From positions 69,770 to 93,769 of the forward strand of contig NZ_WNLP01000010.1 in the NCBI RefSeq assembly GCF_009727065.1: DNA of 24,000 nucleotides. Reading direction: 5' to 3'. The notes under the pieces were generated by a model that was not told the origin of the DNA, ran no database searches, and was given only the letters and a program-made list of their open reading frames with translations. The stretch comes from Bifidobacterium canis. GTDB lineage: Bacteria > Actinomycetota > Actinomycetes > Actinomycetales > Bifidobacteriaceae. Made by a program: the position numbers and the translations under genes. Positions 1 through 22,770 of this stretch are shown in pieces; position 1 is the first letter of the stretch, and each line of letters starts with the position of its first letter.

Positions 1-1943
1 CCCCGCTCCTGCCAACCCATGCACGACTCGCCTATCTGCAACCGCAACCCCTGGAACAGGAGCGCGTTGACCAGACGGCGCGCGTCCTCGCCCATGGCGG
101 CAACGCCGGGGCGGGCGGGGTCGCCGGTGTTGATGGCCAATTGCACCCCATGCGCCAACAACCGTTCCCAGGTGACCGTACGCCGGCTTGGGTCGGTGAG
201 TTGGGGAGCGCCGGCCAACAGGCCCATTTTGTTCATGGGTGCGTTGAGCAATTGGAACAACTGGCCGTCCGACACGGCCGGCCGCCCCGAACGTTCGTTG
301 ACGCCGCCATGGAGGCGTTCGACCGTCTCCCTGGCCTCATCATCGTCCAACGCGCACGCCATGGCGCGCGCCAGGGCACGGCCTGCGCGAGCCCCATGGC
401 CGAACAGCAACGTGAACGCGCCATCCACCCATGTGGCGGGCACGGCGACGCCTTGGCTGGCGCACACTTGGGCGAACCGTGGCGAATCCATGGCACGCAA
501 CGTCAACGCCACGCTGTCGGTCAACTGCAAGCGGCTTTTGGGGCCGATCTGCTGGTCGCCCAACGCGCCATGCATCAGGTTCGCGAACCGTTGGGCCCGC
601 ACCCACGCGTCCCCCTCCCCGAGCAGACTGATCATCGGCGTGCGCGCATCCGCCAGGTCCATGAACCGCATGCGCGGGTTCAACCGGTGCAATATGGGGA
701 AACTGTCCACGCCCTTCGCCTCGAACACCACGACCGAATCATCCGGGTTGCTGTGCGCGCACGCCCATTGCTGCACACCGTGCATGCTGTTCGATTTGCC
801 GCCGCCGGGTTTGCCCAACAACGCGATCCCGTCCCACATGACCGCCGCCGGCATGCGCACCGGCTGCCCGTCGACCGCCACCCCCAACAAGGGCCCGTCC
901 GCGTCCTGCAGTTCGGGCGGGCAGTGCGACAGGGCCGATTGGACGCCACGTTCACGCGCCAAGGGCGCCGCCAACGCCATCAACGTGCCCGGCGGCACCG
1001 GGAACGTGGAGCGTTCATACGCATACGCCTTCGCCCGCCGCCCGCGCCGGCGGCCCCCGTCGTCGCCGGCGGAGCGGGATTTGAAATCACTGGTCTCCAT
1101 GCGCCGGGTGCGCGCATGCGGCCACCACCAATGCCGGGGCCGTTGCCACACGGGCGCGTCCGCCGGCATGCGCACCATGCGCGCCACCGCCGCCACCACC
1201 AGGGGTGCGCTCACCGCCAACGGCCACCATGCGCCCCACAGCACGCACGCCAGGGCCGCCAACAGGCACATGATGACACTGGTCATGAGGAGCGCGAACC
1301 CGGGACGGGAACGGTGCGCCGCCACACCCGGGGTGACGCCCAACCCCAACGCGGTGCCGGCCCGGCGCGCCTCACGGACCGCGTCCGCGCCACGCGGCAT
1401 GCCCGCCACCACACGGCACGCGCCCACACCCGTCTCCTGCAACCGGTTCTGATCGGGCGCCATGTTGAACTCATCCGCCAACCAGTTCTTCGCCCGCCGG
1501 GTCTCCCACACCCCCTGCCGGCGCACATTGACCGCGACCACACCCCCATCCGCCGGATCGAACCGCGACTCGTGCGCATCCACCCCCGTATCCCGGGCCG
1601 TACGCGCCAACGTCGCGGACGCGGGAAACACCGCATGCGCCCACACCAACCGCCGCTCCAACACCTCCGGGGCACCCTCCAGGGGGCAGGCGCGCGCATG
1701 GCACGCGTCCGCCACCAACCGCACCACCTGCCCGTCCACCCCATCGGGCAGACACACCCACCGGCGTGTCCGGTCGGCCAACAACACCATCCCATCATCA
1801 CGGTGCACCAACAGGCGCCACCACGAGTCCCATCCCGGCCGGTCCGCCAAACCCAACGCGGCCGCCGCCTTGCGCGCACGGTTCACATACGCGGCCGCAT
1901 CCTCCGCCGGCACCCCCGGCAACGCCTCAAGCTCATACCACAT
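1..1943 (-). CDS. Type IV secretion coupling protein-like P-loop ATPase (VirD4/TraD/TraG type); 3' end lies beyond the left edge
   Basis: Hand translation of the minus strand. ATG at 1943..1941, with an in-frame TAG just upstream at 1955..1953. I checked every codon down to position 3 and found no stop (~647 codons). The track omits this ORF because it has no in-window stop. Two adjacent TM helices (GFALLMTSVIMCLLAALACVLWGAWWPLAVSAPLVVAAVA, ~nt 1180-1300) are followed by Walker A LLGKPGGGKS (nt 792-815) and, ~20 aa later, VVVFEAKG, which fits the T4CP pattern. Track ORF 141..1964 (+) is its same-phase antisense shadow. Confidence 0.7.
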   Translation of the reverse strand, partial: MWYELEALPGVPAEDAAAYVNRARKAAAALGLADRPGWDSWWRLLVHRDDGMVLLADRTRRWVCLPDGVDGQVVRLVADACHARACPLEGAPEVLERRLVWAHAVFPASATLARTARDTGVDAHESRFDPADGGVVAVNVRRQGVWETRRAKNWLADEFNMAPDQNRLQETGVGACRVVAGMPRGADAVREARRAGTALGLGVTPGVAAHRSRPGFALLMTSVIMCLLAALACVLWGAWWPLAVSAPLVVAAVARMVRMPADAPVWQRPRHWWWPHARTRRMETSDFKSRSAGDDGGRRRGRRAKAYAYERSTFPVPPGTLMALAAPLARERGVQSALSHCPPELQDADGPLLGVAVDGQPVRMPAAVMWDGIALLGKPGGGKSNSMHGVQQWACAHSNPDDSVVVFEAKGVDSFPILHRLNPRMRFMDLADARTPMISLLGEGDAWVRAQRFANLMHGALGDQQIGPKSRLQLTDSVALTLRAMDSPRFAQVCASQGVAVPATWVDGAFTLLFGHGARAGRALARAMACALDDDEARETVERLHGGVNERSGRPAVSDGQLFQLLNAPMNKMGLLAGAPQLTDPSRRTVTWERLLAHGVQLAINTGDPARPGVAAMGEDARRLVNALLFQGLRLQIGESCMGWQER

Positions 1944-3188: not shown

Positions 3189-4893
3189 TCACATTTCGGC
3201 GCTCGCGTTGCCGTCCGGTGTGGACGGTTGCGCCGGTTGCGCCGGTTGCGCGGGTTGTGTGGGTTGGGTTGGTTGTGCGGGCGTGTACTGGGGTGTGTAC
3301 TGCGGCGTGTACTGGGGTGTGGCGGGCGCCGTGTACTGCGGGCCCGTCTCCTGCGTTTGCGTTTGCGCCTCGGCCTGACGGGCCTCCTCCTGCCGGCGTC
3401 GCTCCTCCTGGGCTTTCTGTTTCGCCTCCGCCTCCTTTTTCTTGCGTTCCTCCTCCTGTTTTTCCTCTCCGCCTCCTGTTTGGCACGATTGGCGGCGTCC
3501 TCCTGTTGCGCCTTGGCGCGCAACCCACGCAACGTGTCCTGACGGGACTGCAACGCGTCCAACGTGCCCACCGGCAACCCCTCATACGCTTTGAGTGCCG
3601 ACAACGTATCCTTGCCGGCCAACGGCCAATCCTTGACGGCCCGCGCGGCTTGCGTGCGCATCGCCTCCCATTGGGTTGCGATCTGCTCACTGATGCGCTT
3701 GTCCAGACTGTTGGTGCGGGACCGCAATCGGCTGGTGTGCGCCTCCGTGTCCGCCGGACAGGTGCGTTCGGGACTGCTGCCCGCGTTCAACCGCAACCGT
3801 TTCGCCCGCGCCACGCTCGCATCCCATTGCGCCAACTGCTGCGCGTATTGCGCGCACTGGGCCTCACGGCGCCGCCCATCCCCCGCGGTTTGGTGCGCGT
3901 GCAGCGCGAACACCAGGGCCGCCACCATGAGGATCGCCACGAACACGGCTGCGGCGATGATCAACGGCCGGTATGACCGGGCGCGGCCACCCCCATCATC
4001 ATCGTCCGCGCAAGCGGCCACATCCACCGCATCGGCACCGGCAACCCCCGTATCCCCTATAGGGTCCGTGGATTCCCCATTATCCTCGTCATCGTCCCAG
4101 TCAAGGTCCAGGCTGACGCCACGCGAACCGATCTGCGCGATCCAATCATCATCATCCGCCGCTTTGTCAGGCAAGGGCATGCCCCCGTCCGTGGCCGGCT
4201 CACACGGGTGCTCTGGCATGGCGGAGACTGGTGCGGCGGCCACACCGTCCGTGGTGGTTGTTGGGGGCTCGTCCCATGGGGTGGCGTCGGGACCGGCGAT
4301 GTCATCATCCGCCAACCCATCCCCCGTATGGCGCCCGTATCATCCACAAGTCCACCGTCCGCACCCCAATCCCACTGATCCGCGTCCTGCCCATCCGGCG
4401 TAACTGGCGTGGGGTGTGTATCAGCCCCGGCCTCGTCGGCTTGTTCCCCAGTGGCCTGCACGTCCTGCGGGGGCATGCCGGAATCCTGTTCGTCTTGCAC
4501 TGGGGTGTCCCACAACGCATCCCAATCCTCATCATCCACCGCGGTCCCGCCGTCGCCCATGTCAGGGACCTGCACGGGCCCATCCCGGTCCACCGGCTGT
4601 GCCGGCACCGGCGCCTCACTCGGTTCGGGTTGTCCCGCCGGGGCCATGGCCGGTTCCGGATCGGTCCACAGGCTCTCCCAATCATCCCCATCCGGATTGG
4701 ACGGTTCAACCGGCCCGGTGGCATGGCCATCGCCGCCCGGTGCTCCCATGGATGCGGCCTCGGGTGCGGTATGCCCCTCGCCCGCATTGCCCGCCGGGCG
4801 CACCTCACCTTTTGGCATGACGGGTGCGGCCGGTGTGGGTTCACTGGACACCGGGGGTGTGGCCGCGGACTCGAACTTCGGTTTGAATGGCAT
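3189..4893 (-). CDS. Acidic Trp-rich / single-TM / coiled-coil / Q-P-T-Y repeat protein, function unknown; two apparent one-base frame breaks (pseudogene or sequence error)
   Basis: ATG at 4893, with AGGGG 7 nt upstream. Three frame segments: 4893..~4323 (start of track ORF 4057..4893); ~4322..~3461 (track ORF 2990..4315); ~3461..3189 (no start codon, so absent from the track). Hand translation of the third segment: KQEEERKKKEAEAKQKAQEERRRQEEARQAEAQTQTQETGPQYTAPATPQYTPQYTPQYTPAQPTQPTQPAQPAQPAQPSTPDGNASAEM*. The breaks coincide with C5 (4321-4325) and T5 (3459-3463). The corrected stop sits just before the 3150-3180 hairpin. The uncorrected frames instead give Arg-rich or Pro-rich junk, and one reads through the hairpin into dnaN antisense. 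TM segment: YRPLIIAAAVFVAILMVAALVFAL. Confidence 0.55.
3226..3342. repeat. In-frame coding tandem repeats (9 bp x6 degenerate, then 12 bp units)
   Basis: GGTTGCGCC-type 9-mers at 3226, 3235, 3244, 3253, 3262 and 3271 encode P-A/T-Q triplets on the minus strand. GTGTACTG(G/C)GG(T/C) 12-mers at 3283, 3295 and 3307, plus a fourth at 3331 after a 12 bp spacer, encode PQYT units. Confidence 0.8.
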
Positions 4894-5029: not shown

Positions 5030-5350
5030 TCTTCACTGACGCAGTGATGTCGGTGAAGACTCCTCAACCCTACTGCCGATTGGGGTTGGGGGCTCCGAAA
5101 ACATGTTTCTTCACCGACGCAGCGTGGTTCTAAAGGAACCCCCAAATCGGCTCCCCTATAGAAAGACCTTAAAAGTCGGTGCGTCACCGAAGAAACTTCA
5201 TAAACCCCAATCAGCAGTAGGCTTAGGAGCCTTCACCGACATTCGAAAGTCGGTGAAGAAAGTTGGGTGTCTTCACCGACATCACCCGCGCGGTCGGTGA
5301 AGAAACCTGCATGTCGGTGAAGAAACATGGAATGTCACTGCGTCGCCGAC
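5030..5350. repeat. Iteron-like array of GTCGGTGAAGA(AAC) / TCTTCACCGAC motifs; putative replication origin or operator region
   Basis: Forward copies at 5049-5059, 5249-5259, 5293-5306 and 5313-5326. Reverse copies at 5030-5040 (1 mismatch), 5108-5118, 5230-5240 (1 mismatch) and 5270-5280. Degenerate composite copies at 5175-5196 and 5334-5350. Three inverted pairs have 8, 8 and 12 bp spacers, and two direct copies sit 20 bp apart. A separate 19 bp inverted repeat, CCTACTGCCGATTGGGGTT (5069-5087) / AACCCCAATCAGCAGTAGG (5203-5221), has 1 mismatch. An A/T-rich patch lies at ~5357-5420. The array sits between divergent genes, directly upstream of the helicase/Prim-Pol gene. Confidence 0.6.
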
Positions 5351-5524
5351 CACACCGGAAAACAAAAAGAAACATATTGCGCATCGCATTGTTTTCGGCG
5401 TGGCTACGGAAATAAACCATCCTCCCCCGCTTTGGGGCGGTTGGGGTGGCCGGGGTGGTGGTCCTTGTGACGCATAGGGGGTACCGCAAGACGCGACACC
5501 GTAGGATGCGGGGAGGATGAGCAC

Positions 5525-8014
5525 ATGTGCACCTACCAAGAGGAACAGGACATGCAACGCTGGAGGTTCCGCGTACGCCCCGGCATGCCACGCAACGTGC
5601 AGAAGATCTACAACGAAATGAGCATCGTCGACTACGACGCCGGCGAATGGACCTTCATCGACGACCACAACGACCCGGTGCGCGTACCCACCCGCAACGA
5701 CGGCAAACCCTACTTCGCCATCGGCTACGCGCGCGCCCTATGGGACTTGCGCAACCGCAACCTCGCCTTGGAACTGCAACCGGACGATGCCGGCACCGTC
5801 CTGTTCCGCCGTGACATCGACACCGAAACGGACGAGAACGGACAGGTGCGCCGGTTGCACACATGGCACGCGATCTCCGCCATCGCGGACGAGTACCGGG
5901 TGCCACGGGCGGAACGCAACAACGAGTGGGAGAACCTGTTCATCCAGGAATGCCGGCGGCTGAAAACACGCGACGGGCACCCATGGCGCGTCGTGCACGG
6001 CATCCGTTTCGACGACCGCGCCTACTGGCGTGAGGACGACGGCAAAGGCCACCAGCACCTGCATGAGATCCTCGACCCGGACGACCCGTTGATGCAAATG
6101 CCCTTCGAACTCAACCTCGAACACGCATGGGATGACCATCTCGCCGACGTGGGCGCACGCATCATCGACGATCTGACCGCGGACGCGAACAGCCGGCACA
6201 ACATGATGCTGCTGCCCGCCAGCCCGTTCCTGCAACCCTACAAGCATCTGACGTTCGTCCTGGCCGGTGACGGCGGCAACGGCAAAGGCCTGTTTTTCAG
6301 CGCGTTCACGAAACACAACCGGCAGACCCAACGCCTGTCCGCCACCATCGACACGGAGAAACTCGTCGGCGGCGGCCGCCTGTCGGGCACATCGGTCGAA
6401 CAGGAACCGGTCAAACTCGTGGGCAAACTGTGGGCGTTCGATGAGGACGCCAGCGGATTGGACACCCACCAGACGGACCGGTTGAAACGCCTGTCCACCG
6501 GCGACACGATCTCGGGGCGTGTGCTGGGCTCGGACGTGATCAGCTTCAACCCGCGTGCCGTGTTGTGCATCGCCACGAACCTTGATTTCGTGACGAACAT
6601 GGACGCGAGCATGAAACGCCGCTTCGCGTTCATCCGCATGAAGGACAACCGCAGCGCCGACAGTCCCGAAATGGTGTACCTGCGTACGTTCGTCGCCACG
6701 GTGGGCGCCTGGGGGTTCATCATGGCGTCCTGCCGCTATTGGCAGCAGCATCCGGCCGGCAAGGCGTTGACCGTGCAGATCGGCCGGCCTGAGAACCTGT
6801 CGGAGGCGGAGGAATGGATCGTGGCGGAACTGGTGGAGCGTGGTTTCGCGGACAACACCAGCAACCCGTTCCGCCCCTCCAGCCATGCGACGCATGACAT
6901 TTGCCAGAAGCTGGGGTTGAAGACGGCGAGGCGCCGCAACAAGAGCGTGCTCATGGTCAACATGGACGATGAGGAGGCGCGCGCCAGGTTCCAACCGTAC
7001 GCCGCGTATGTGCGTGACAAGATCGAACAGGACGGGCATGCGGTGCCCCCGGACGCGTTGCGCCGCCAACCGGACAAGCGCAACCCGGACGAGTATGGCT
7101 TCGTATGTGATTACACGCCGGCGGGCGCCGACAAGGTCGCGCGCAACTGGCAGAAGCTCGCGTTGGACCCGGGTGTGGACACCAGTAGGGTGCCGCAGGG
7201 TGTCAATGCGTGGGCGGCGGTCCCTGCCGAGGGGTATGCGGTGTTGGATTTCGACGTGCCGGACGATCCGGGCGCGCAAACCGGGTGGGCTGTGTTGAGC
7301 GATGAGGTCGGCGCGTACGGGTCGATGGCGTTCCCCGCCACGTTCGTGACCCGCACCCCCGGCATGGGCGCGCATGCGTATTACCGGTTGCCCAAGGGTG
7401 TGGTGTTGCGCAACACGGCGCACCCGAAGACGGACCGGTTCCCCGATGGGTTGCCCATTGATGTGCGCACGGCCCGCAAGGGGTATGTCATCGCCCCCGG
7501 CAGCACCATCCGCAAAGGCCAGTATCTGATCGCGGATGCGCATGAGGTCGTGGAGATGAGCGCGGAAATGGTCGCCTGGCTGGATGAGCACGGGTATGTG
7601 GAGCATCCCGAAGCGGACGCGGAAACCGATGTGATGGTGGACTCTGATGGCGTCATCGCCGGTCCCGCGAACACCCCGGCCCCGGCGGGGCGTCGTGGTG
7701 GTGTGGATCCGTTGGGTGGCTTCTACCGTTCACCCCAAACGCAGCCGCGCCCGGAGGGTGGCAACCGTGGGGAGACGATGCGGTTGAATGTGCCGGCGCA
7801 ATCCAAGGGCGCCACGCATGACGCGATCCGGGATTGGTCGTATGGGCTGATCCATCACGCCGCGGAGGAGCGGTTCAGCCAACCGGAGGTGGATGCGTTG
7901 GTGGAACGGATCAAACGCGGTGTGCGTGTTGGCCATGACCGGCATGACACGGCGTTGGTGTTGGCCGGCGCGTTGAAACAGGCGGGGTTGAGCACCCGCG
8001 TGCCGTTGGAGTGA
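5525..8014 (+). CDS. Replication protein: SF3 (P4/D5-type) helicase domain followed by a bifunctional primase-polymerase (Prim-Pol) domain
   Basis: ATG at 5525 lies 7 nt after GGAGGA (5512-5517); an alternative ATG is at 5552. SF3 motifs: Walker A VLAGDGGNGKGLF (6266-6289 encodes GDGGNGKG), Walker B KLWAFDED, motif C VLCIATN, then KRRFAFI. Prim-Pol motifs: YAVLDFDV (7241-7258), PGMGAHAYYRLP and IDVRTARKGYVIAPGS. The 829 aa frame is uninterrupted. Confidence 0.85.
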   Translation: MCTYQEEQDMQRWRFRVRPGMPRNVQKIYNEMSIVDYDAGEWTFIDDHNDPVRVPTRNDGKPYFAIGYARALWDLRNRNLALELQPDDAGTVLFRRDIDTETDENGQVRRLHTWHAISAIADEYRVPRAERNNEWENLFIQECRRLKTRDGHPWRVVHGIRFDDRAYWREDDGKGHQHLHEILDPDDPLMQMPFELNLEHAWDDHLADVGARIIDDLTADANSRHNMMLLPASPFLQPYKHLTFVLAGDGGNGKGLFFSAFTKHNRQTQRLSATIDTEKLVGGGRLSGTSVEQEPVKLVGKLWAFDEDASGLDTHQTDRLKRLSTGDTISGRVLGSDVISFNPRAVLCIATNLDFVTNMDASMKRRFAFIRMKDNRSADSPEMVYLRTFVATVGAWGFIMASCRYWQQHPAGKALTVQIGRPENLSEAEEWIVAELVERGFADNTSNPFRPSSHATHDICQKLGLKTARRRNKSVLMVNMDDEEARARFQPYAAYVRDKIEQDGHAVPPDALRRQPDKRNPDEYGFVCDYTPAGADKVARNWQKLALDPGVDTSRVPQGVNAWAAVPAEGYAVLDFDVPDDPGAQTGWAVLSDEVGAYGSMAFPATFVTRTPGMGAHAYYRLPKGVVLRNTAHPKTDRFPDGLPIDVRTARKGYVIAPGSTIRKGQYLIADAHEVVEMSAEMVAWLDEHGYVEHPEADAETDVMVDSDGVIAGPANTPAPAGRRGGVDPLGGFYRSPQTQPRPEGGNRGETMRLNVPAQSKGATHDAIRDWSYGLIHHAAEERFSQPEVDALVERIKRGVRVGHDRHDTALVLAGALKQAGLSTRVPLE

Positions 8015-8035
8015 ACAGGTTGAGGGAGGTTGGCA

Positions 8036-8314
8036 ATGGTGCAGGGTGAACCGATCGACCCGGTGGTGTGGGACGTGTGGTGTGCCGTCGTGGAGTACGA
8101 GACGGGGGCGCGCCACGGGTTCACGGCCCGTGTCGCCCGGTTGGATGCGTGGGGTGTGGTGGAGGCCAACGCCCGTTCGTTGCAGTTGGCGTTGGCGGTC
8201 TACCGGTGGCTGTTGGCCCGGTTCGCGATGACCGCACCCGACCGTGTCGCCGGGTGGCGCCAGCGCGTGCTGGAGTGCGAGGGCGCGCTACGGTTCCAAA
8301 CCATGGACGCGTGA
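8036..8314 (+). CDS. Hypothetical small protein (92 aa)
   Basis: ATG at 8036 lies 6 nt after GAGGGAGG (8022-8029) and 22 nt after the upstream stop. Third-position G/C bias looks coding. I recognised no motif. Confidence 0.5.
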   Translation: MVQGEPIDPVVWDVWCAVVEYETGARHGFTARVARLDAWGVVEANARSLQLALAVYRWLLARFAMTAPDRVAGWRQRVLECEGALRFQTMDA

Positions 8315-15609: not shown

Positions 15610-16413
15610 ATGGACGTGTTGGACAACACCAGCGCACTATGGTGCACGAACCCCGTGCCATTGCACGACGGCATGGAGGACCTGTACCACACCTGGTTCG
15701 CCGGGCATACCGGGCAACCAGACGGGCAGACGGTCAGCGTCCAACCATGGTCGCCCATGCCGTGCCCCACACCATGGGCGAACACCATGGACACGGTCAC
15801 CAACATGTATTTGGGGTTGCCGATGATCTGGCTGCCCCAAGAGGTGTGGGCGCGCTACGGCACGGAAACCAACGCCGCATGGCACATGCGCATGATGCTC
15901 ACCCTCACCATCCTCAACCAGGTGAACGTCACGGACCATGGGCAACTCACCTACCGGTTGATGGACACGATCCCCACCAACCCGGACCGTTTGGCGGCCA
16001 TGGCCCTGTCCGCCGCCACTGGCGAGGGCAGTGAGGACGCCGACCAGTGCCGCCAAACAGCGGCCGCATGGGTGGACGTGGCATGGCCGGACGGCTACCC
16101 GTTGGCGATGTTGTGCGCCTTGGCGCGTGACCTGGTGCCCGTATGCGAGTACGGCAGCGCCGTCCTGTCCGCCTACACGGCGGTCGCGTACGCGACGGTT
16201 GGTGCGGACGGGCAACGGTACGCGGTGCGTATGCTGCGCACGCTCCGGGACGTGTACCCGCAGGTGTTCACCCCGGACGCGTTGACGCCGCAAGCGGTGA
16301 CCGGCTGGTACCAGACCCACCGGCAGCAGGCGGTGGACATGATGAATGTGTTGGCGGACCTCAACCTCGAACACCGTGACATGGCGACCACCGTCGCCAA
16401 CCTGTTGGCCTAG
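15610..16413 (+). CDS. Hypothetical protein (267 aa, Trp-rich)
   Basis: ATG at 15610 lies ~9 nt after AAAGGA (15595-15600). The frame is uninterrupted and protein-like with high third-position G/C. I recognised no motif. Confidence 0.6.
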   Translation: MDVLDNTSALWCTNPVPLHDGMEDLYHTWFAGHTGQPDGQTVSVQPWSPMPCPTPWANTMDTVTNMYLGLPMIWLPQEVWARYGTETNAAWHMRMMLTLTILNQVNVTDHGQLTYRLMDTIPTNPDRLAAMALSAATGEGSEDADQCRQTAAAWVDVAWPDGYPLAMLCALARDLVPVCEYGSAVLSAYTAVAYATVGADGQRYAVRMLRTLRDVYPQVFTPDALTPQAVTGWYQTHRQQAVDMMNVLADLNLEHRDMATTVANLLA

Positions 16414-16749: not shown

Positions 16750-18312
16750 ATGACAAGCAGGAAATGGCAATTGGCGGCCGGGCTTACCGGACTGGCGCTG
16801 TTCGCGTCGATCGGTGTGGGTGTGGCGCCCGCCATGGCGGCGGACATCCCCGCCGGCACCGACCAGTTGACGATCACCGCCGGTCAGGGGTCCACGTTGG
16901 CGGGCAAGAACCTGACCGTGTACCGCATCGCCGAATACCCGGATGTGGTGATGAACGGCAACGATCTGGCGAGCCTGTCCGCCCGTTCGGTGAGCAACGC
17001 GACCGAACAGTGGGTGAAAGCCGCATTGGACGCGCAGCATGTGACCGTCAAAGCCGGTGACAACGCGGCAAGCACCCTGCTGCGTGTCACTGATGACACG
17101 AACACGGTGCGCCAACTGGCGGCCCGGTTGGCCACGAGCGTGGACGGCAAGGATTTGCAGAAGAAGACCGTGCCGGCATCCACCACGGAAAGCGTGACAA
17201 TGCAGTTGCCGGCAGGATATTACCTGGTCACGGACGCGGATGGTGTGCCGATCCTCATCTCCTCGACGGTGCGGGGCAAGAACAGTTTGAACAAGAAGCC
17301 GATCGGACGGACCACCATCAAGTCCAACGGCATCAAACCGGAGAAGAAGGTGAAGAACCTCGCCGGCCAATGGGTCGATGAGGCGTCCGCCACGAACTCG
17401 GAGACCCGCGAGTACCGTGTGCGGTTCACCGTGCCGAACGCCGCCGCCGTGCAGACCGTCACCATCGGGGACGTGATGGAGAACATGGAGTATGTGGCGG
17501 GCACGTTCCACGCGACCGTGGATGGTGCGGATGTGACCGGCCAGTTCAACACGCCAACGAAAACCAGCAACGGGTTCACCGCCACATCCAAGAACACGTT
17601 CGTCGCCGCCCATGAGGGCAAGCAGGTGACCGTCACCTACAGCACCCAGATGACCACGTTGGACAAGTCCAAGCCGGCCGTCAACAAGGTGGGTGTCACC
17701 CCCGGTTGGAAGGACGGTGTGTTCCTGGAGGGCCAGCCGAAACCCACGGTGCCGACGGTCACGACGACGCTCAACACGTACGATTTCGGGTTGCGCAAGG
17801 TGTCCGCAGGCAACACCAGCAAGACGGTCGCCGGCGCCGGGTTCAAGATCCAAAACCAGTCCGCGTTGCATCAGAACAAGTGGATGAACTGGAACGCGGG
17901 CACGAAGCAATGGTCGTACGTGGATGCGGAAAACGCGGCCACGGAGTTGAGGACCGGCGCGAACGGCGTGATCGATTTCCGCAGCCTGGGTGCGGGCACG
18001 TACCTGGTCAAGGAGACCACCGTGCCGGATGGGTATTTCACGCATATCAAACCGTCGTTCAGGGTGACGATCACGGAGGACGGCAAGGTCACTGCCGTGG
18101 GTGTCGATCAGGCGGGCCTGGTCACCGGTGTGAACAATGCGGATGGCAAGGCTGGCACGCCCATGGTGACGGTGCAGAACGTGGATAACGTGTCGCAGTT
18201 GCCGAAGACGGGTTCGTCCACGTTGGCGGTCCTGTTGTTCGCCGGCATGGCGATCGTGTTGGCCGCGGGCGCGGCGGGCATCTCCGCATACATGCTCAAG
18301 AGCCGTGCCTGA
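16750..18312 (+). CDS. LPXTG-anchored fimbrial (pilin-type) subunit
   Basis: ATG at 16750 lies 7 nt after GAAAGGA (16736-16742). Signal peptide ...GVGVAPAMA/AD. An E-box-like YLVKETTVPDGY is present. The sorting signal is LPKTG (18199-18213), then a hydrophobic stretch and the tail KSRA. Repeated beta-rich segments fit CnaB/SpaA-type pilins. Confidence 0.85.
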   Translation: MTSRKWQLAAGLTGLALFASIGVGVAPAMAADIPAGTDQLTITAGQGSTLAGKNLTVYRIAEYPDVVMNGNDLASLSARSVSNATEQWVKAALDAQHVTVKAGDNAASTLLRVTDDTNTVRQLAARLATSVDGKDLQKKTVPASTTESVTMQLPAGYYLVTDADGVPILISSTVRGKNSLNKKPIGRTTIKSNGIKPEKKVKNLAGQWVDEASATNSETREYRVRFTVPNAAAVQTVTIGDVMENMEYVAGTFHATVDGADVTGQFNTPTKTSNGFTATSKNTFVAAHEGKQVTVTYSTQMTTLDKSKPAVNKVGVTPGWKDGVFLEGQPKPTVPTVTTTLNTYDFGLRKVSAGNTSKTVAGAGFKIQNQSALHQNKWMNWNAGTKQWSYVDAENAATELRTGANGVIDFRSLGAGTYLVKETTVPDGYFTHIKPSFRVTITEDGKVTAVGVDQAGLVTGVNNADGKAGTPMVTVQNVDNVSQLPKTGSSTLAVLLFAGMAIVLAAGAAGISAYMLKSRA

Positions 18313-21290: not shown

Positions 21291-21320
21291 TTAACAATAT
21301 TACGCGCGTAGTGATATAAT
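21291..21320 (+). promoter_or_regulatory. Promoter candidate inside the IS left end, implying a leaderless tnpB mRNA
   Basis: -35 TTAACA (21291-21296), an 18 nt spacer, then -10 TATAAT (21315-21320). The first ATG (21319) overlaps the -10. The second ATG (21328) lies 8 nt after it, where transcription would start. Confidence 0.4.
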
Positions 21321-22770
21321 GTATCGCATGTCTCAAAAGGTCGCGATCGAACGAGTGCAGGTACGGGGCGCCATCCCATACCTCGGCACAAACACGACCG
21401 AAGACGGGCAACAAGTACCGTTGTATTCCTCCAACCCTGATATCGTGATGCGCTGGCTGTGCGACGGGTGGCGCTGCCGGTACAACCAACTGCGTTCCCG
21501 CCGGCAAAAATGGGACAAGACCAGACAAGCGCTTATCCCGTTGGGTGACGAGCCGGACATGCGCGCCGACAAGCAAGCGAGAGCAGAATGCTCATGGCTC
21601 GCCGCGATTCCCGCGATGATCCTGCAATCCCCGAACCGTATCGAGAACACCGACTGGTGGAGCGCGAACAAACGCAGGAAGACCCTGCGCAAGCAACACC
21701 GGAACCCGGGCATGATGCCACGGTTCAAAAGCCGCCGTGACGATCTGTATTTCGTATGCTGGCACAACAGGGGCATGAACGCGAACTGGCGCCAGTTCAA
21801 CAAGCACCACGGGGAAATCATCATCACCGGGCAGAACCCCAAGCCGGTCAACCTCGCAGGGCAACCTTGCCGGTACCGTATCCACATCCGTGTGCGCGTC
21901 AGCCAACCGATCCGCGACTACACGAGCATCGGCGTGAACTGGACGAGGAAAACCGTCGTCTTCATCAACGAACCATTGCCGATCGCACGGGAACGCACGA
22001 ACCGCATGGTCGGGCTCGACCGTGGTGTGGCGCACACGCTCGCCACGTCCGACGGTGGGTTCATCGACCTGCCGAAAGCCCGTTTGGCCCGAATCGACCG
22101 GGAGATTCGCCGCCGTCAGAAGGCGCAGGCGCGCAGAGTGAAACTCTCCGGCGAACCCGTGAACGAATACAGACGGCATGCGAGCCGCGCATACCGGCGC
22201 ACGCAAGCGCAAATCGCCGGCTTGTATGCGAAAGCGCATCGCATCATCGACGACTGGCAGCACAAGACCACGACCGCGCTCGTACGGGCGTACGACCTCA
22301 TCGCCATCGAAAACCTCAACCTGCAAGGCATGACCCGACGCGCGAACATCAAACCCGACCCGAATCATGCCGGACGGTTCCTGCCGAACGGTCAAGCGGC
22401 GAAACGCGGACTGAACCACAGTCTACGCGCGGCCGCGCTTGGCGGCATCGCAAGCAAACTCGAATACAAGACGCAGGCCGCCGCCCATAGTCGGCTGATC
22501 CTCGTCAACCCGGCGTACACATCCCGAACATGCAGCAAGTGCGGGCATTGCGCGAAGGAAAACCGTGAGAGCCAAGCGGTGTTCCAGTGCCAACAATGCC
22601 ACACACGCATGAACGCCGACGTGAACGCCGCCATCAACATCCTCAACCGGGGTGTTGACCATGTTCTCGGCTTGGACGAAGCCGAGCGTGCCATAACGAC
22701 ACAAGACGCCCGAACCGTGCAACACGGCGAAAGCGCGATCGTGGCACGCGGAACCTCAACCCGGCCTTAA
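21319..22770 (+). CDS. tnpB: TnpB (IS605 OrfB-type RNA-guided nuclease)
   Basis: RuvC motifs MVGLDRGV, LIAIENLN and MNADVNAAINI, plus a zinc ribbon CSKCGH...CQQCH. The true start may be ATG 21328 (see the promoter feature). Confidence 0.9.
   Translation: MYRMSQKVAIERVQVRGAIPYLGTNTTEDGQQVPLYSSNPDIVMRWLCDGWRCRYNQLRSRRQKWDKTRQALIPLGDEPDMRADKQARAECSWLAAIPAMILQSPNRIENTDWWSANKRRKTLRKQHRNPGMMPRFKSRRDDLYFVCWHNRGMNANWRQFNKHHGEIIITGQNPKPVNLAGQPCRYRIHIRVRVSQPIRDYTSIGVNWTRKTVVFINEPLPIARERTNRMVGLDRGVAHTLATSDGGFIDLPKARLARIDREIRRRQKAQARRVKLSGEPVNEYRRHASRAYRRTQAQIAGLYAKAHRIIDDWQHKTTTALVRAYDLIAIENLNLQGMTRRANIKPDPNHAGRFLPNGQAAKRGLNHSLRAAALGGIASKLEYKTQAAAHSRLILVNPAYTSRTCSKCGHCAKENRESQAVFQCQQCHTRMNADVNAAINILNRGVDHVLGLDEAERAITTQDARTVQHGESAIVARGTSTRP

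Follow-up and report, generated by a model that had tools for sequence, protein, structure and literature searches.

Among the helicase-primase fusions of double-stranded DNA viruses, the primase is N-terminal in 94% (Kazlauskas, Krupovic, Venclovas 2016, PMC4889955), the named exceptions being dns of phage N4, gp55 of Lactococcus phage 1706, in which a superfamily 3 (SF3) helicase is followed by an archaeo-eukaryotic primase (AEP) and a family-B polymerase (PolB), and Pas55 of phiAsp2 (PMC4889955). Helicase, primase, polymerase, and exonuclease activities of gp55 were shown in 2025 (PMC12205980); the reversed order is rare but already documented. Here, a gene with this helicase-first order is described from Bifidobacterium canis. 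It lies at positions 5525-8014 of a stretch of 24,000 nucleotides (the window, positions 69770-93769 of the 94-kb contig C2; contig C1 of the same genome has 573 kb), encodes a protein of 829 residues, and carries a glycine directly after the Walker A lysine of the SF3 domain (position K+1), where Ser or Thr is the textbook residue. The gene probably specifies the initiator and primase-helicase of a large integrated Bifidobacterium element (at least ~120 kb), and its GKG-type ATPase site most likely still hydrolyzes NTP.

In gp55 (HelPrimPolB), as in the B. canis protein, an SF3 helicase is N-terminal to an AEP in one polypeptide, and the activity of this helicase-first replicase in phage 1706 (PMC12205980) lends support by analogy to the role proposed here. 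However, gp55, which is compared by its described layout, runs on into a family-B polymerase, has a PriS-like AEP, forms dimers, and uses UTP/dTTP (PMC12205980), whereas the B. canis protein has a Prim-Pol-type AEP, a tentatively PriCT-like tail, a unique N-terminal domain of 225 residues, and a GKG P-loop. The helicase activity of gp55 is abolished by the K189A substitution (PMC12205980). In dns of phage N4, cited as a non-typical fusion (PMC4889955), the AEP also comes after the helicase, but this helicase is related to DUF3987/MCM and belongs to superfamily 6, not to the D5/P4-type SF3 group.

The primase-first replicases, that is, pRN1 ORF904, vaccinia D5 and monkeypox virus (MPXV) E5, African swine fever virus (ASFV) C962R, and bacterial proteins with Prim-Pol and primase_Cterm domains, share with the B. 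canis protein a D5/P4-type SF3 helicase and an AEP with a PriCT-type helper, the latter tentatively so in the B. canis protein, and the ATPase fold of D5, E5, and C962R matches that of the studied protein. Nevertheless, their modules stand in the opposite order, the N-terminal and middle domains of the B. canis protein have no profile similarity to their inter-domain or C-terminal regions, and their solved members carry GK[ST]. The canonical layout of ORF904, D5, and C962R, with the AEP N-terminal to SF3, is not that of the 829-residue protein. Phage P4 alpha, which is initiator, helicase, and primase in a single protein, has an SF3 helicase of the D5 group and, after it, a winged helix that binds the origin by recognizing short repeats, in likeness to the reading given below. 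However, its primase is N-terminal and of the DnaG/TOPRIM type, not an AEP (PMC4889955), whereas the AEP of the studied protein sits after a putative winged-helix-like domain. The original prediction, made from the DNA sequence, had counted P4 alpha among the characterized fusions and held that all of these are primase-first; this is right in that the reversed order is rare, but it overlooks the characterized precedent of gp55.

Domain order and anatomy

Five parts were delimited in the protein with hidden Markov models (HMMs) of single domains cut from the family alignment and with an AlphaFold2 model (mean predicted local distance difference test score, pLDDT, 76). They are given here with their motifs, by position in the window:

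5512-5516, plus strand: GGAGG ribosome-binding site, read from the sequence, 8 nt 5' of the ATG at 5525
5525-8014, plus strand: helicase-first primase-helicase gene, 829 aa, open frame, GC content at third codon positions (GC3) 0.83
5525-6199, plus strand: N-terminal domain, residues 1-225, beta-rich and family-specific (AlphaFold2 model of the domain alone with pLDDT 83 and predicted template modeling score 0.80)
6200-6769, plus strand: D5/P4-type SF3 ATPase domain, residues 226-415, from PF19263, the TIGR01613 region, and Foldseek
6266-6289, plus strand: Walker A GDGGNGKG, residues 248-255, with Gly255 (GGC) at K+1
6428-6448, plus strand: Walker B strand and acidic cluster LWAFDED, residues 302-308
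6569-6580, plus strand: motif C (sensor 1) IATN, residues 349-352, Asn352 invariant
6617-6622, plus strand: Arg365-Arg366, an invariant pair at the arginine-finger position
6770-7084, plus strand: middle domain, residues 416-520, helix-helix-beta-hairpin and a long helix in the model, with a conserved KLGL...RR in the alignment
7142-7663, plus strand: Prim-Pol (AEP) domain, residues 540-713, from PF09250
7247-7255, 7373-7375, and 7460-7462, plus strand: AEP catalytic residues Asp575/Asp577, His617, and Asp646, assigned from their invariance
7610-7756, plus strand: predicted disordered linker, residues ~696-745, pLDDT below 50, its length and sequence differing among the aligned proteins
7757-8011, plus strand: C-terminal three-helix tail, residues 745-829, from the model and the alignment

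Profile searches bear out the order helicase, then primase (SF3 at 226-415, AEP at 540-713), that had been predicted. Thus, Pfam DUF5906 (PF19263, the D5/P4-type SF3 ATPase) matches residues 246-366 over its full profile (1-114) with 31.2 bits against a cut-off of 27.6, as it also matches 8/8 aligned homologues, and Pfam Prim-Pol (PF09250) matches residues 544-673 with 51.7 bits against a cut-off of 22.8 (E-value 1.8e-13); Prim-Pol is found at the C-terminal side and none at the N-terminus. The P4-family primase_Cterm region of NCBIfam TIGR01613 falls at residues 241-376, with a score of 33.8 that is below its cut-off of 108.7, and the PHROGs helicase and primase families agree with Pfam on both regions and on their order. 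No PolB domain was matched in the 829-residue protein by Pfam, NCBIfam, or PHROGs; a short helical tail closes the protein at residue 829. The motifs that had been quoted were all recovered at or close to the coordinates given for them, with VLDFDV at residues 573-578 (nucleotides 7241-7258) and GAHAYY and DVRTARKGYVIAPGS likewise present in the protein.

In structural comparison with Foldseek, the whole model matches vaccinia D5, MPXV E5, ASFV C962R, and SaPI5 PriRep1 with E-values of 4e-10 to 2e-8 and probability 1.0, the overall TM-scores being low because the query is multi-domain. Asp306 and Asp308 of the Walker B cluster are conserved throughout the family, and the pair Glu307-Asp308 aligns with the EE of C962R. 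On the primase side, Asp575, Asp577, His617, and Asp646, which form motifs I (DxD), II (xxH), and III (hD), are invariant in 59-60 of the 60 helicase-first relatives.

Both ends of the protein had been left unassigned. This still holds for the ~225 N-terminal residues, which have no match in Pfam and, despite the confident model, no fold match in the Protein Data Bank (PDB) or BFVD with E<0.2; the HMM of this domain matches helicase-first or helicase-only relatives and no others. The ~130 C-terminal residues are now divided into the linker (696-745) and the helical tail (745-829). In relatives, the tail has the consensus PEGxRNxTLHxWAYGRL, and it aligns with the segment right after the AEP in primase-first relatives (hhalign, P 1.4e-4). 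Pfam PriCT_1 (PF08708) gives weak matches in 4 of 11 relatives (best E 0.004) and none in the studied copy, in which the RN of the consensus is lost and TH stands instead. A comparison of the tail with PDB sequences returned spurious matches to designed helical repeat proteins and nothing else. The tail can, tentatively, be called PriCT-like. The middle domain seems to be winged-helix-like in the model and is putatively a DNA- or origin-binding domain, since in D5/P4-family helicases the C-terminal winged helix after the ATPase binds the origin (PMC4889955).

The glycine after the Walker A lysine

A Walker A motif without Ser/Thr had been predicted, and GDGGNGKG with Gly255 at K+1 is confirmed. 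The Walker A of the family profile, GeGGNGKG, aligns column by column with GGGCNGKT of ASFV C962R and, therefore, Gly255 stands at the Ser/Thr position. In the alignment of homologues, which had been proposed as a check, GxGGNGKG is present in 8/8 down to 30% identity, and the copy of B. cuniculi is identical there, so that GKG does not stem from a sequencing error. A tree was built of 116 related SF3 domains from proteins of either domain order; Gly occupies K+1 in 64 of these domains, and 51 are of the Ser/Thr type. A third state, Asn, is seen in GFGLNGKN of one helicase-first relative (P0050). GKS is found in the phage branch and in several other helicase-first branches, and GKG in 11 of 29 primase-first relatives. 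By parsimony, the residue has changed between Gly and Ser/Thr at least 14 times on this tree, seven on each side, and close relatives alternate between Gly and Ser without any other motif change. Moreover, 7 of 12 D5/P4-like open reading frames (ORFs) from other phyla have GKG; the pattern used to retrieve these stops at the Lys, which leaves the next residue unbiased. Since Gly at K+1 is common both in relatives and in other phyla, the textbook motif GxxxxGK[S/T] is too narrow for the D5/P4-type SF3 group.

Across relatives, the K+1 glycine is written with all four Gly codons, and the K+1 serine mostly as AGC/AGT, one transition away from GGC/GGT; therefore, the residue switches easily. The ratio of nonsynonymous to synonymous substitutions (dN/dS) against the B. 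cuniculi copy is 0.05 in the SF3 domain and 0.12 in the whole gene, as under purifying selection, SF3 being its most constrained part, and the rest of the ATPase site is conserved, including Lys254, the acidic Walker B residues Asp306/Glu307/Asp308, Asn352, and Arg365/Arg366. From these comparisons, GKG appears as a conserved, recurrent variant of the D5/P4-like SF3 group and not as a lesion, and because the glycine is selected, recurrent, and freely interchangeable with Ser/Thr in this helicase group, the site is likely functional. In the proposed mechanism, the GKG Walker A would keep both Mg-NTP binding and hydrolysis, with a water molecule replacing the missing hydroxyl and the acidic residues of the additional-strand catalytic-glutamate (ASCE) type performing catalysis. 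We, thus, read the ATPase as probably active but atypical. The original prediction had called it atypical or impaired: the first term is fair, as Ser/Thr at K+1 is described as strictly conserved in P-loop NTPases (PMC9599734), but impairment is unlikely given the intact motifs, the dN/dS of 0.05, and the at least 14 exchanges.

What is reported on other P-loop NTPases weighs against retained hydrolysis. In a large structural survey, Ser/Thr at K+1 is described as strictly conserved and its replacement as abolishing catalysis, and the residue has been proposed to act both as Mg ligand and as proton relay (PMC9599734). The natural outliers with Gly at K+1 are mainly nucleotide monophosphate (NMP) kinases that avoid hydrolysis, in which water serves as Mg ligand (PMC9599734). 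A binding-only ATPase is, therefore, conceivable. As the main rival, the SF3 domain could form a ring that binds NTP and is deficient in hydrolysis, with Gly at K+1 suppressing it, and that acts as an origin-binding or oligomerizing scaffold or as a nucleotide-gated switch positioning the Prim-Pol, while a host helicase unwinds. Such a ring would accord with the loss of the proposed Mg ligand and proton relay at Gly255, with the kinases that escape futile hydrolysis through the same residue, and with the comparison of column compositions between the 64 Gly-type and 51 Ser/Thr-type SF3 domains, which revealed no residue that makes up for the missing hydroxyl and follows Gly irrespective of clade. 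Nevertheless, GKG proteins keep residues that only hydrolysis needs (the acidic Walker B pair, the sensor-1 Asn, and the Arg finger pair), the repeated Gly/Ser alternation without other motif change is hard to square with repeated loss and regain of hydrolysis, and no other helicase gene was recognized among the genes of the window; this ring is, on balance, unlikely.

The best candidate for compensation, Asp306, which precedes the acidic pair, was rejected, as it tracks clade and not Gly, being present in close GKS relatives and absent from primase-first GKG proteins. The resemblance to adenylate kinase and other NMP kinases (GxxGxGKG) consists of Gly at K+1 with water in the place of the hydroxyl as Mg ligand (PMC9599734); however, these are phosphotransferases of the kinase-GTPase division and not ASCE hydrolases, and the likeness concerns one residue only. 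The SF3 domain alone gave no match against PDB sequences and, thus, no solved relative of the GKG type was found. A literature search returned no paper joining GKG with Walker A, helicase, and primase, and a broader one only general P-loop papers.

Beyond retained hydrolysis, it is conceivable, at rather less than even chances, that GKG-type D5/P4-like SF3 helicases are fully active hydrolases without the K+1 hydroxyl, or that Gly shifts the nucleotide preference (compare the UTP/dTTP use of gp55), and that the Prim-Pol, placed behind the motor and winged-helix side, acts on the strand leaving the helicase channel.

The family and the origin of its layout

The layout of N-terminal domain, SF3, winged-helix-like domain, Prim-Pol, and PriCT-like tail appears, from the sequence comparisons, to define a sizeable uncharacterized family, which occurs in Bifidobacteriaceae, in mobile elements of other Actinomycetota, and in Bifidobacterium phages. 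In a search of 5.8 billion proteins, all eight close homologues contain both Pfam domains in the same order, and an exhaustive profile search of 1.84 billion representative proteins gave 91 proteins at E<=1e-30. When the best 150 of 9,959 library hits at E<=0.001 were classified, 60 clusters were helicase-first, 29 helicase-only, and 29 primase-first, both domains of the latter being homologous to those of the studied protein; these primase-first proteins are the nearest outgroup in this search. Among Bifidobacteriaceae, 29 of 200 species genomes (~15%), from 8 of 17 genera, have a match, mostly full-length and without stops; the B. canis genome itself has one copy of the gene. Among the named hosts are B. 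cuniculi (98% identical), B. animalis, B. castoris, Scardovia, Alloscardovia, Granulicoccus, and Collinsella.

A homologue of 30% identity and like layout is encoded by eight isolated Bifidobacterium phages of 32-34 kb, BP677P3 among them. In BP677P3 (OP172702.1, positions 187-2442) and seven related phage records, it is the product of the first gene, a helicase-first primase-helicase of 751 residues with a canonical GKS Walker A. The phage homologues are annotated as 'hypothetical protein' and the genome copies as 'bifunctional DNA primase/polymerase'. Helicase-only versions of the family occur in small integrase-bearing elements. At one helicase-only relative (P0009), a split-gene form was considered and rejected, since the 274-residue gene downstream is not a recognizable AEP. 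In a plasmid database, no homologue was found except distant Prim-Pol domains in Pseudonocardia plasmids and, therefore, this is not a known plasmid Rep; the SF3-AEP layout of the family is not described in the survey of actinobacterial integrative and conjugative elements (ICEs).

The existence of helicase-only and AEP-only relatives could suggest that adjacent helicase and primase genes were artificially joined by an assembly or frameshift error. However, the frame is unbroken in B. cuniculi, B. animalis, B. castoris, Scardovia, Alloscardovia, the phages, and 60 representative clusters, and these independent full-length copies already refute an artefact, to which next to no credence can be given.

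The primase-first proteins group in a single clade of the SF3 tree (SH-like approximate likelihood ratio test, SH-aLRT, 99), so that a single change of order explains the data, and the helicase-first arrangement appears to have a single origin relative to its nearest primase-first relatives. A circular permutation, in which a primase-first ancestor would have been duplicated in tandem and then truncated, finds no support, as the N-terminal and middle domains gave no match to those parts of primase-first relatives that lie between the two domains or at the C-terminus (hhalign P 0.13-0.69); only the C-terminal tail was matched, to the post-AEP segment. A fusion of separate helicase and AEP-PriCT modules would fit better than a permutation. 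Other Bifidobacteriaceae genomes contain such a module as a stand-alone gene of ~300 aa for an AEP with a PriCT-like part, which corresponds by homology to the C-terminal half of the studied protein and overlaps the start of a gene for an AAA_25 RepA-like helicase with a winged-helix tail (two loci, 5807-7818 and 521-2514). There, the primase is paired with a different helicase in the usual order, and the AEP-PriCT module, by its distribution, looks mobile and shuffled.

The integrated element, the repeat array, and the proposed role

Contig C2 has a GC content of 63%, against 57.5% in the genome, and its right end overlaps the right end of C1 over 262 bp with 98.5% identity. C1 shows a rise in GC content from ~58% to ~64% at ~546 kb, just past a tRNA-Val gene (544,769-544,842), where a tyrosine integrase is also matched (545,698-546,189), and its high-GC part contains six more tRNA genes (Leu, Arg, Gln, Gln, Lys, Trp) at C1:550,039-551,355. 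In B. cuniculi, a stretch of 14.5 kb that is 96% identical lies inside a 780-kb contig. The GC step, the tRNA-Val gene, the integrase, the overlap of the contigs, and the B. cuniculi copy, therefore, place the gene, hereafter rep, in what appears to be an integrated element of at least ~120 kb, in the region of C1:544,459-573,196 and all of C2.

Upstream of rep, in a 570-bp gap, an 11-bp motif is clustered. The whole window contains 21 matches to it against 5.9 expected. The array is one of eight copies in the element (each of ~330 bp with 7-8 motifs, 80-92% identical, in both orientations), which are located as follows:

5030-5323 of the window, no strand assigned: eight GTCGGTGAAGA motifs (11 bp, 0-1 mismatch, both orientations)
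C2, six array copies, the last being that of the window: 15646-15929, 17498-17782, 34379-34663, 34948-35231, 62367-62650, 74799-75082
Near the end of C1, array copies: ~557,530-557,860 and ~566,930-567,250

With eight copies, the array is not simply 'the origin'; it is a candidate origin or operator and possibly a repeated regulatory, iteron, or miniature inverted-repeat transposable element (MITE)-like module. In B. animalis subsp. animalis MCC 0483, an array is also found upstream of the rep homologue (3340-3660), with a different motif, GTCGCAGCA / TGCTGCGAC, in about nine copies and both orientations. The change of site sequence along with the protein, which is 57% identical there, suggests the pattern expected of cognate protein-site pairs.

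The role of initiator and primase-helicase of the element is inferred from context. The winged-helix-like domain, the N-terminal domain, or both would bind the 11-bp repeat array beside the gene, and the SF3 ring would melt and unwind the DNA by NTP hydrolysis. The C-terminal Prim-Pol, which a linker tethers to the helicase module at its C-terminal side, that of the motor, would then synthesize primers or short DNA along the single strand so exposed, and synthesis could be passed to the host polymerase via the sliding clamp and the single-stranded DNA-binding protein (SSB) of the element. Several points speak against this role. The winged-helix-like and PriCT-like assignments are weakly grounded, and the array occurs in eight copies in the element and not only upstream of rep, so that it may be a general operator or repeated module. 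Moreover, the PrimPol encoded beside a helicase in Thermus ICETh2 is dispensable for replication of that element (PMC7693054) and, therefore, a replication role is not to be assumed for ICE-borne PrimPols.

Following the ICETh2 case, the protein may not be the replicase but an accessory factor for DNA-damage tolerance, defence, or establishment, as proposed for the PrimPol-helicase pair of that element, with relaxase-driven rolling circle replicating the element. The dispensability of the ICETh2 Ppol (PMC7693054) would be in line with this, as would the conjugation-type genes of the B. canis element (a coupling-protein-like ATPase, sortase, and pilin), which make relaxase-primed replication conceivable. 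Nevertheless, homologues of the same layout are found in isolated Bifidobacterium phages of 32-34 kb and in small integrase-bearing elements, where a replicase role is obvious, rep adjoins a repeat array whose motif differs at the B. animalis homologue, and the gene is clustered with those for SSB and clamp. An accessory function is, thus, quite improbable, and the role of initiator and primase-helicase is preferred.

The neighbours of rep encode a DnaN-like clamp, an SSB of the T7 gp2.5/Enc34 type, an HNH nuclease, a Fic protein, a pilin, a sortase, and TnpB. Three ORFs of the window are located as follows:

3-1943, minus strand: ORF read as a coupling protein in the original prediction, without a Pfam match at E<=0.01
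8030-8314: small ORF of 94 aa with high GC3, directly 3' of rep, without a Pfam match
21319-22770: TnpB / IS605 OrfB-type gene (OrfB_IS605 and a Cas12f1-like TNB domain), downstream of the sortase and pilin genes

The B. animalis counterpart of the first of these, of 861 residues, has only a faint AAA_10 match, and the ORF at 3-1943 is putatively a divergent coupling-protein-like gene. The B. animalis element shares the backbone formed by the coupling-protein-like gene, rep, SSB, and HNH, and no clamp was called in the B. animalis locus. In that element, an 87-residue ORF overlaps the stop codon of rep, and the small ORF at 8030-8314 is possibly a conserved partner gene of rep.

With these results, a replicase family that lacked annotation and is widespread among mobile elements of gut bifidobacteria is named and described part by part. 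In one helicase group, glycine at K+1 is frequent and has evolved repeatedly, although it counts as nearly forbidden among P-loop NTPases that hydrolyze NTP, and the mechanistic question of what the K+1 hydroxyl contributes can be reached here with a single point mutant. If GKG-type helicases were fully active, their natural Gly/Ser swaps would offer a ready test and a possible counter-example to a universal catalytic role of Ser/Thr at K+1, and if the Prim-Pol acted on the strand leaving the channel, the protein would be a self-contained helicase-polymerase unit. For gut bifidobacteria, in which replicons and genetic tools are scarce, a minimal cassette of origin and rep could serve as a vector backbone.

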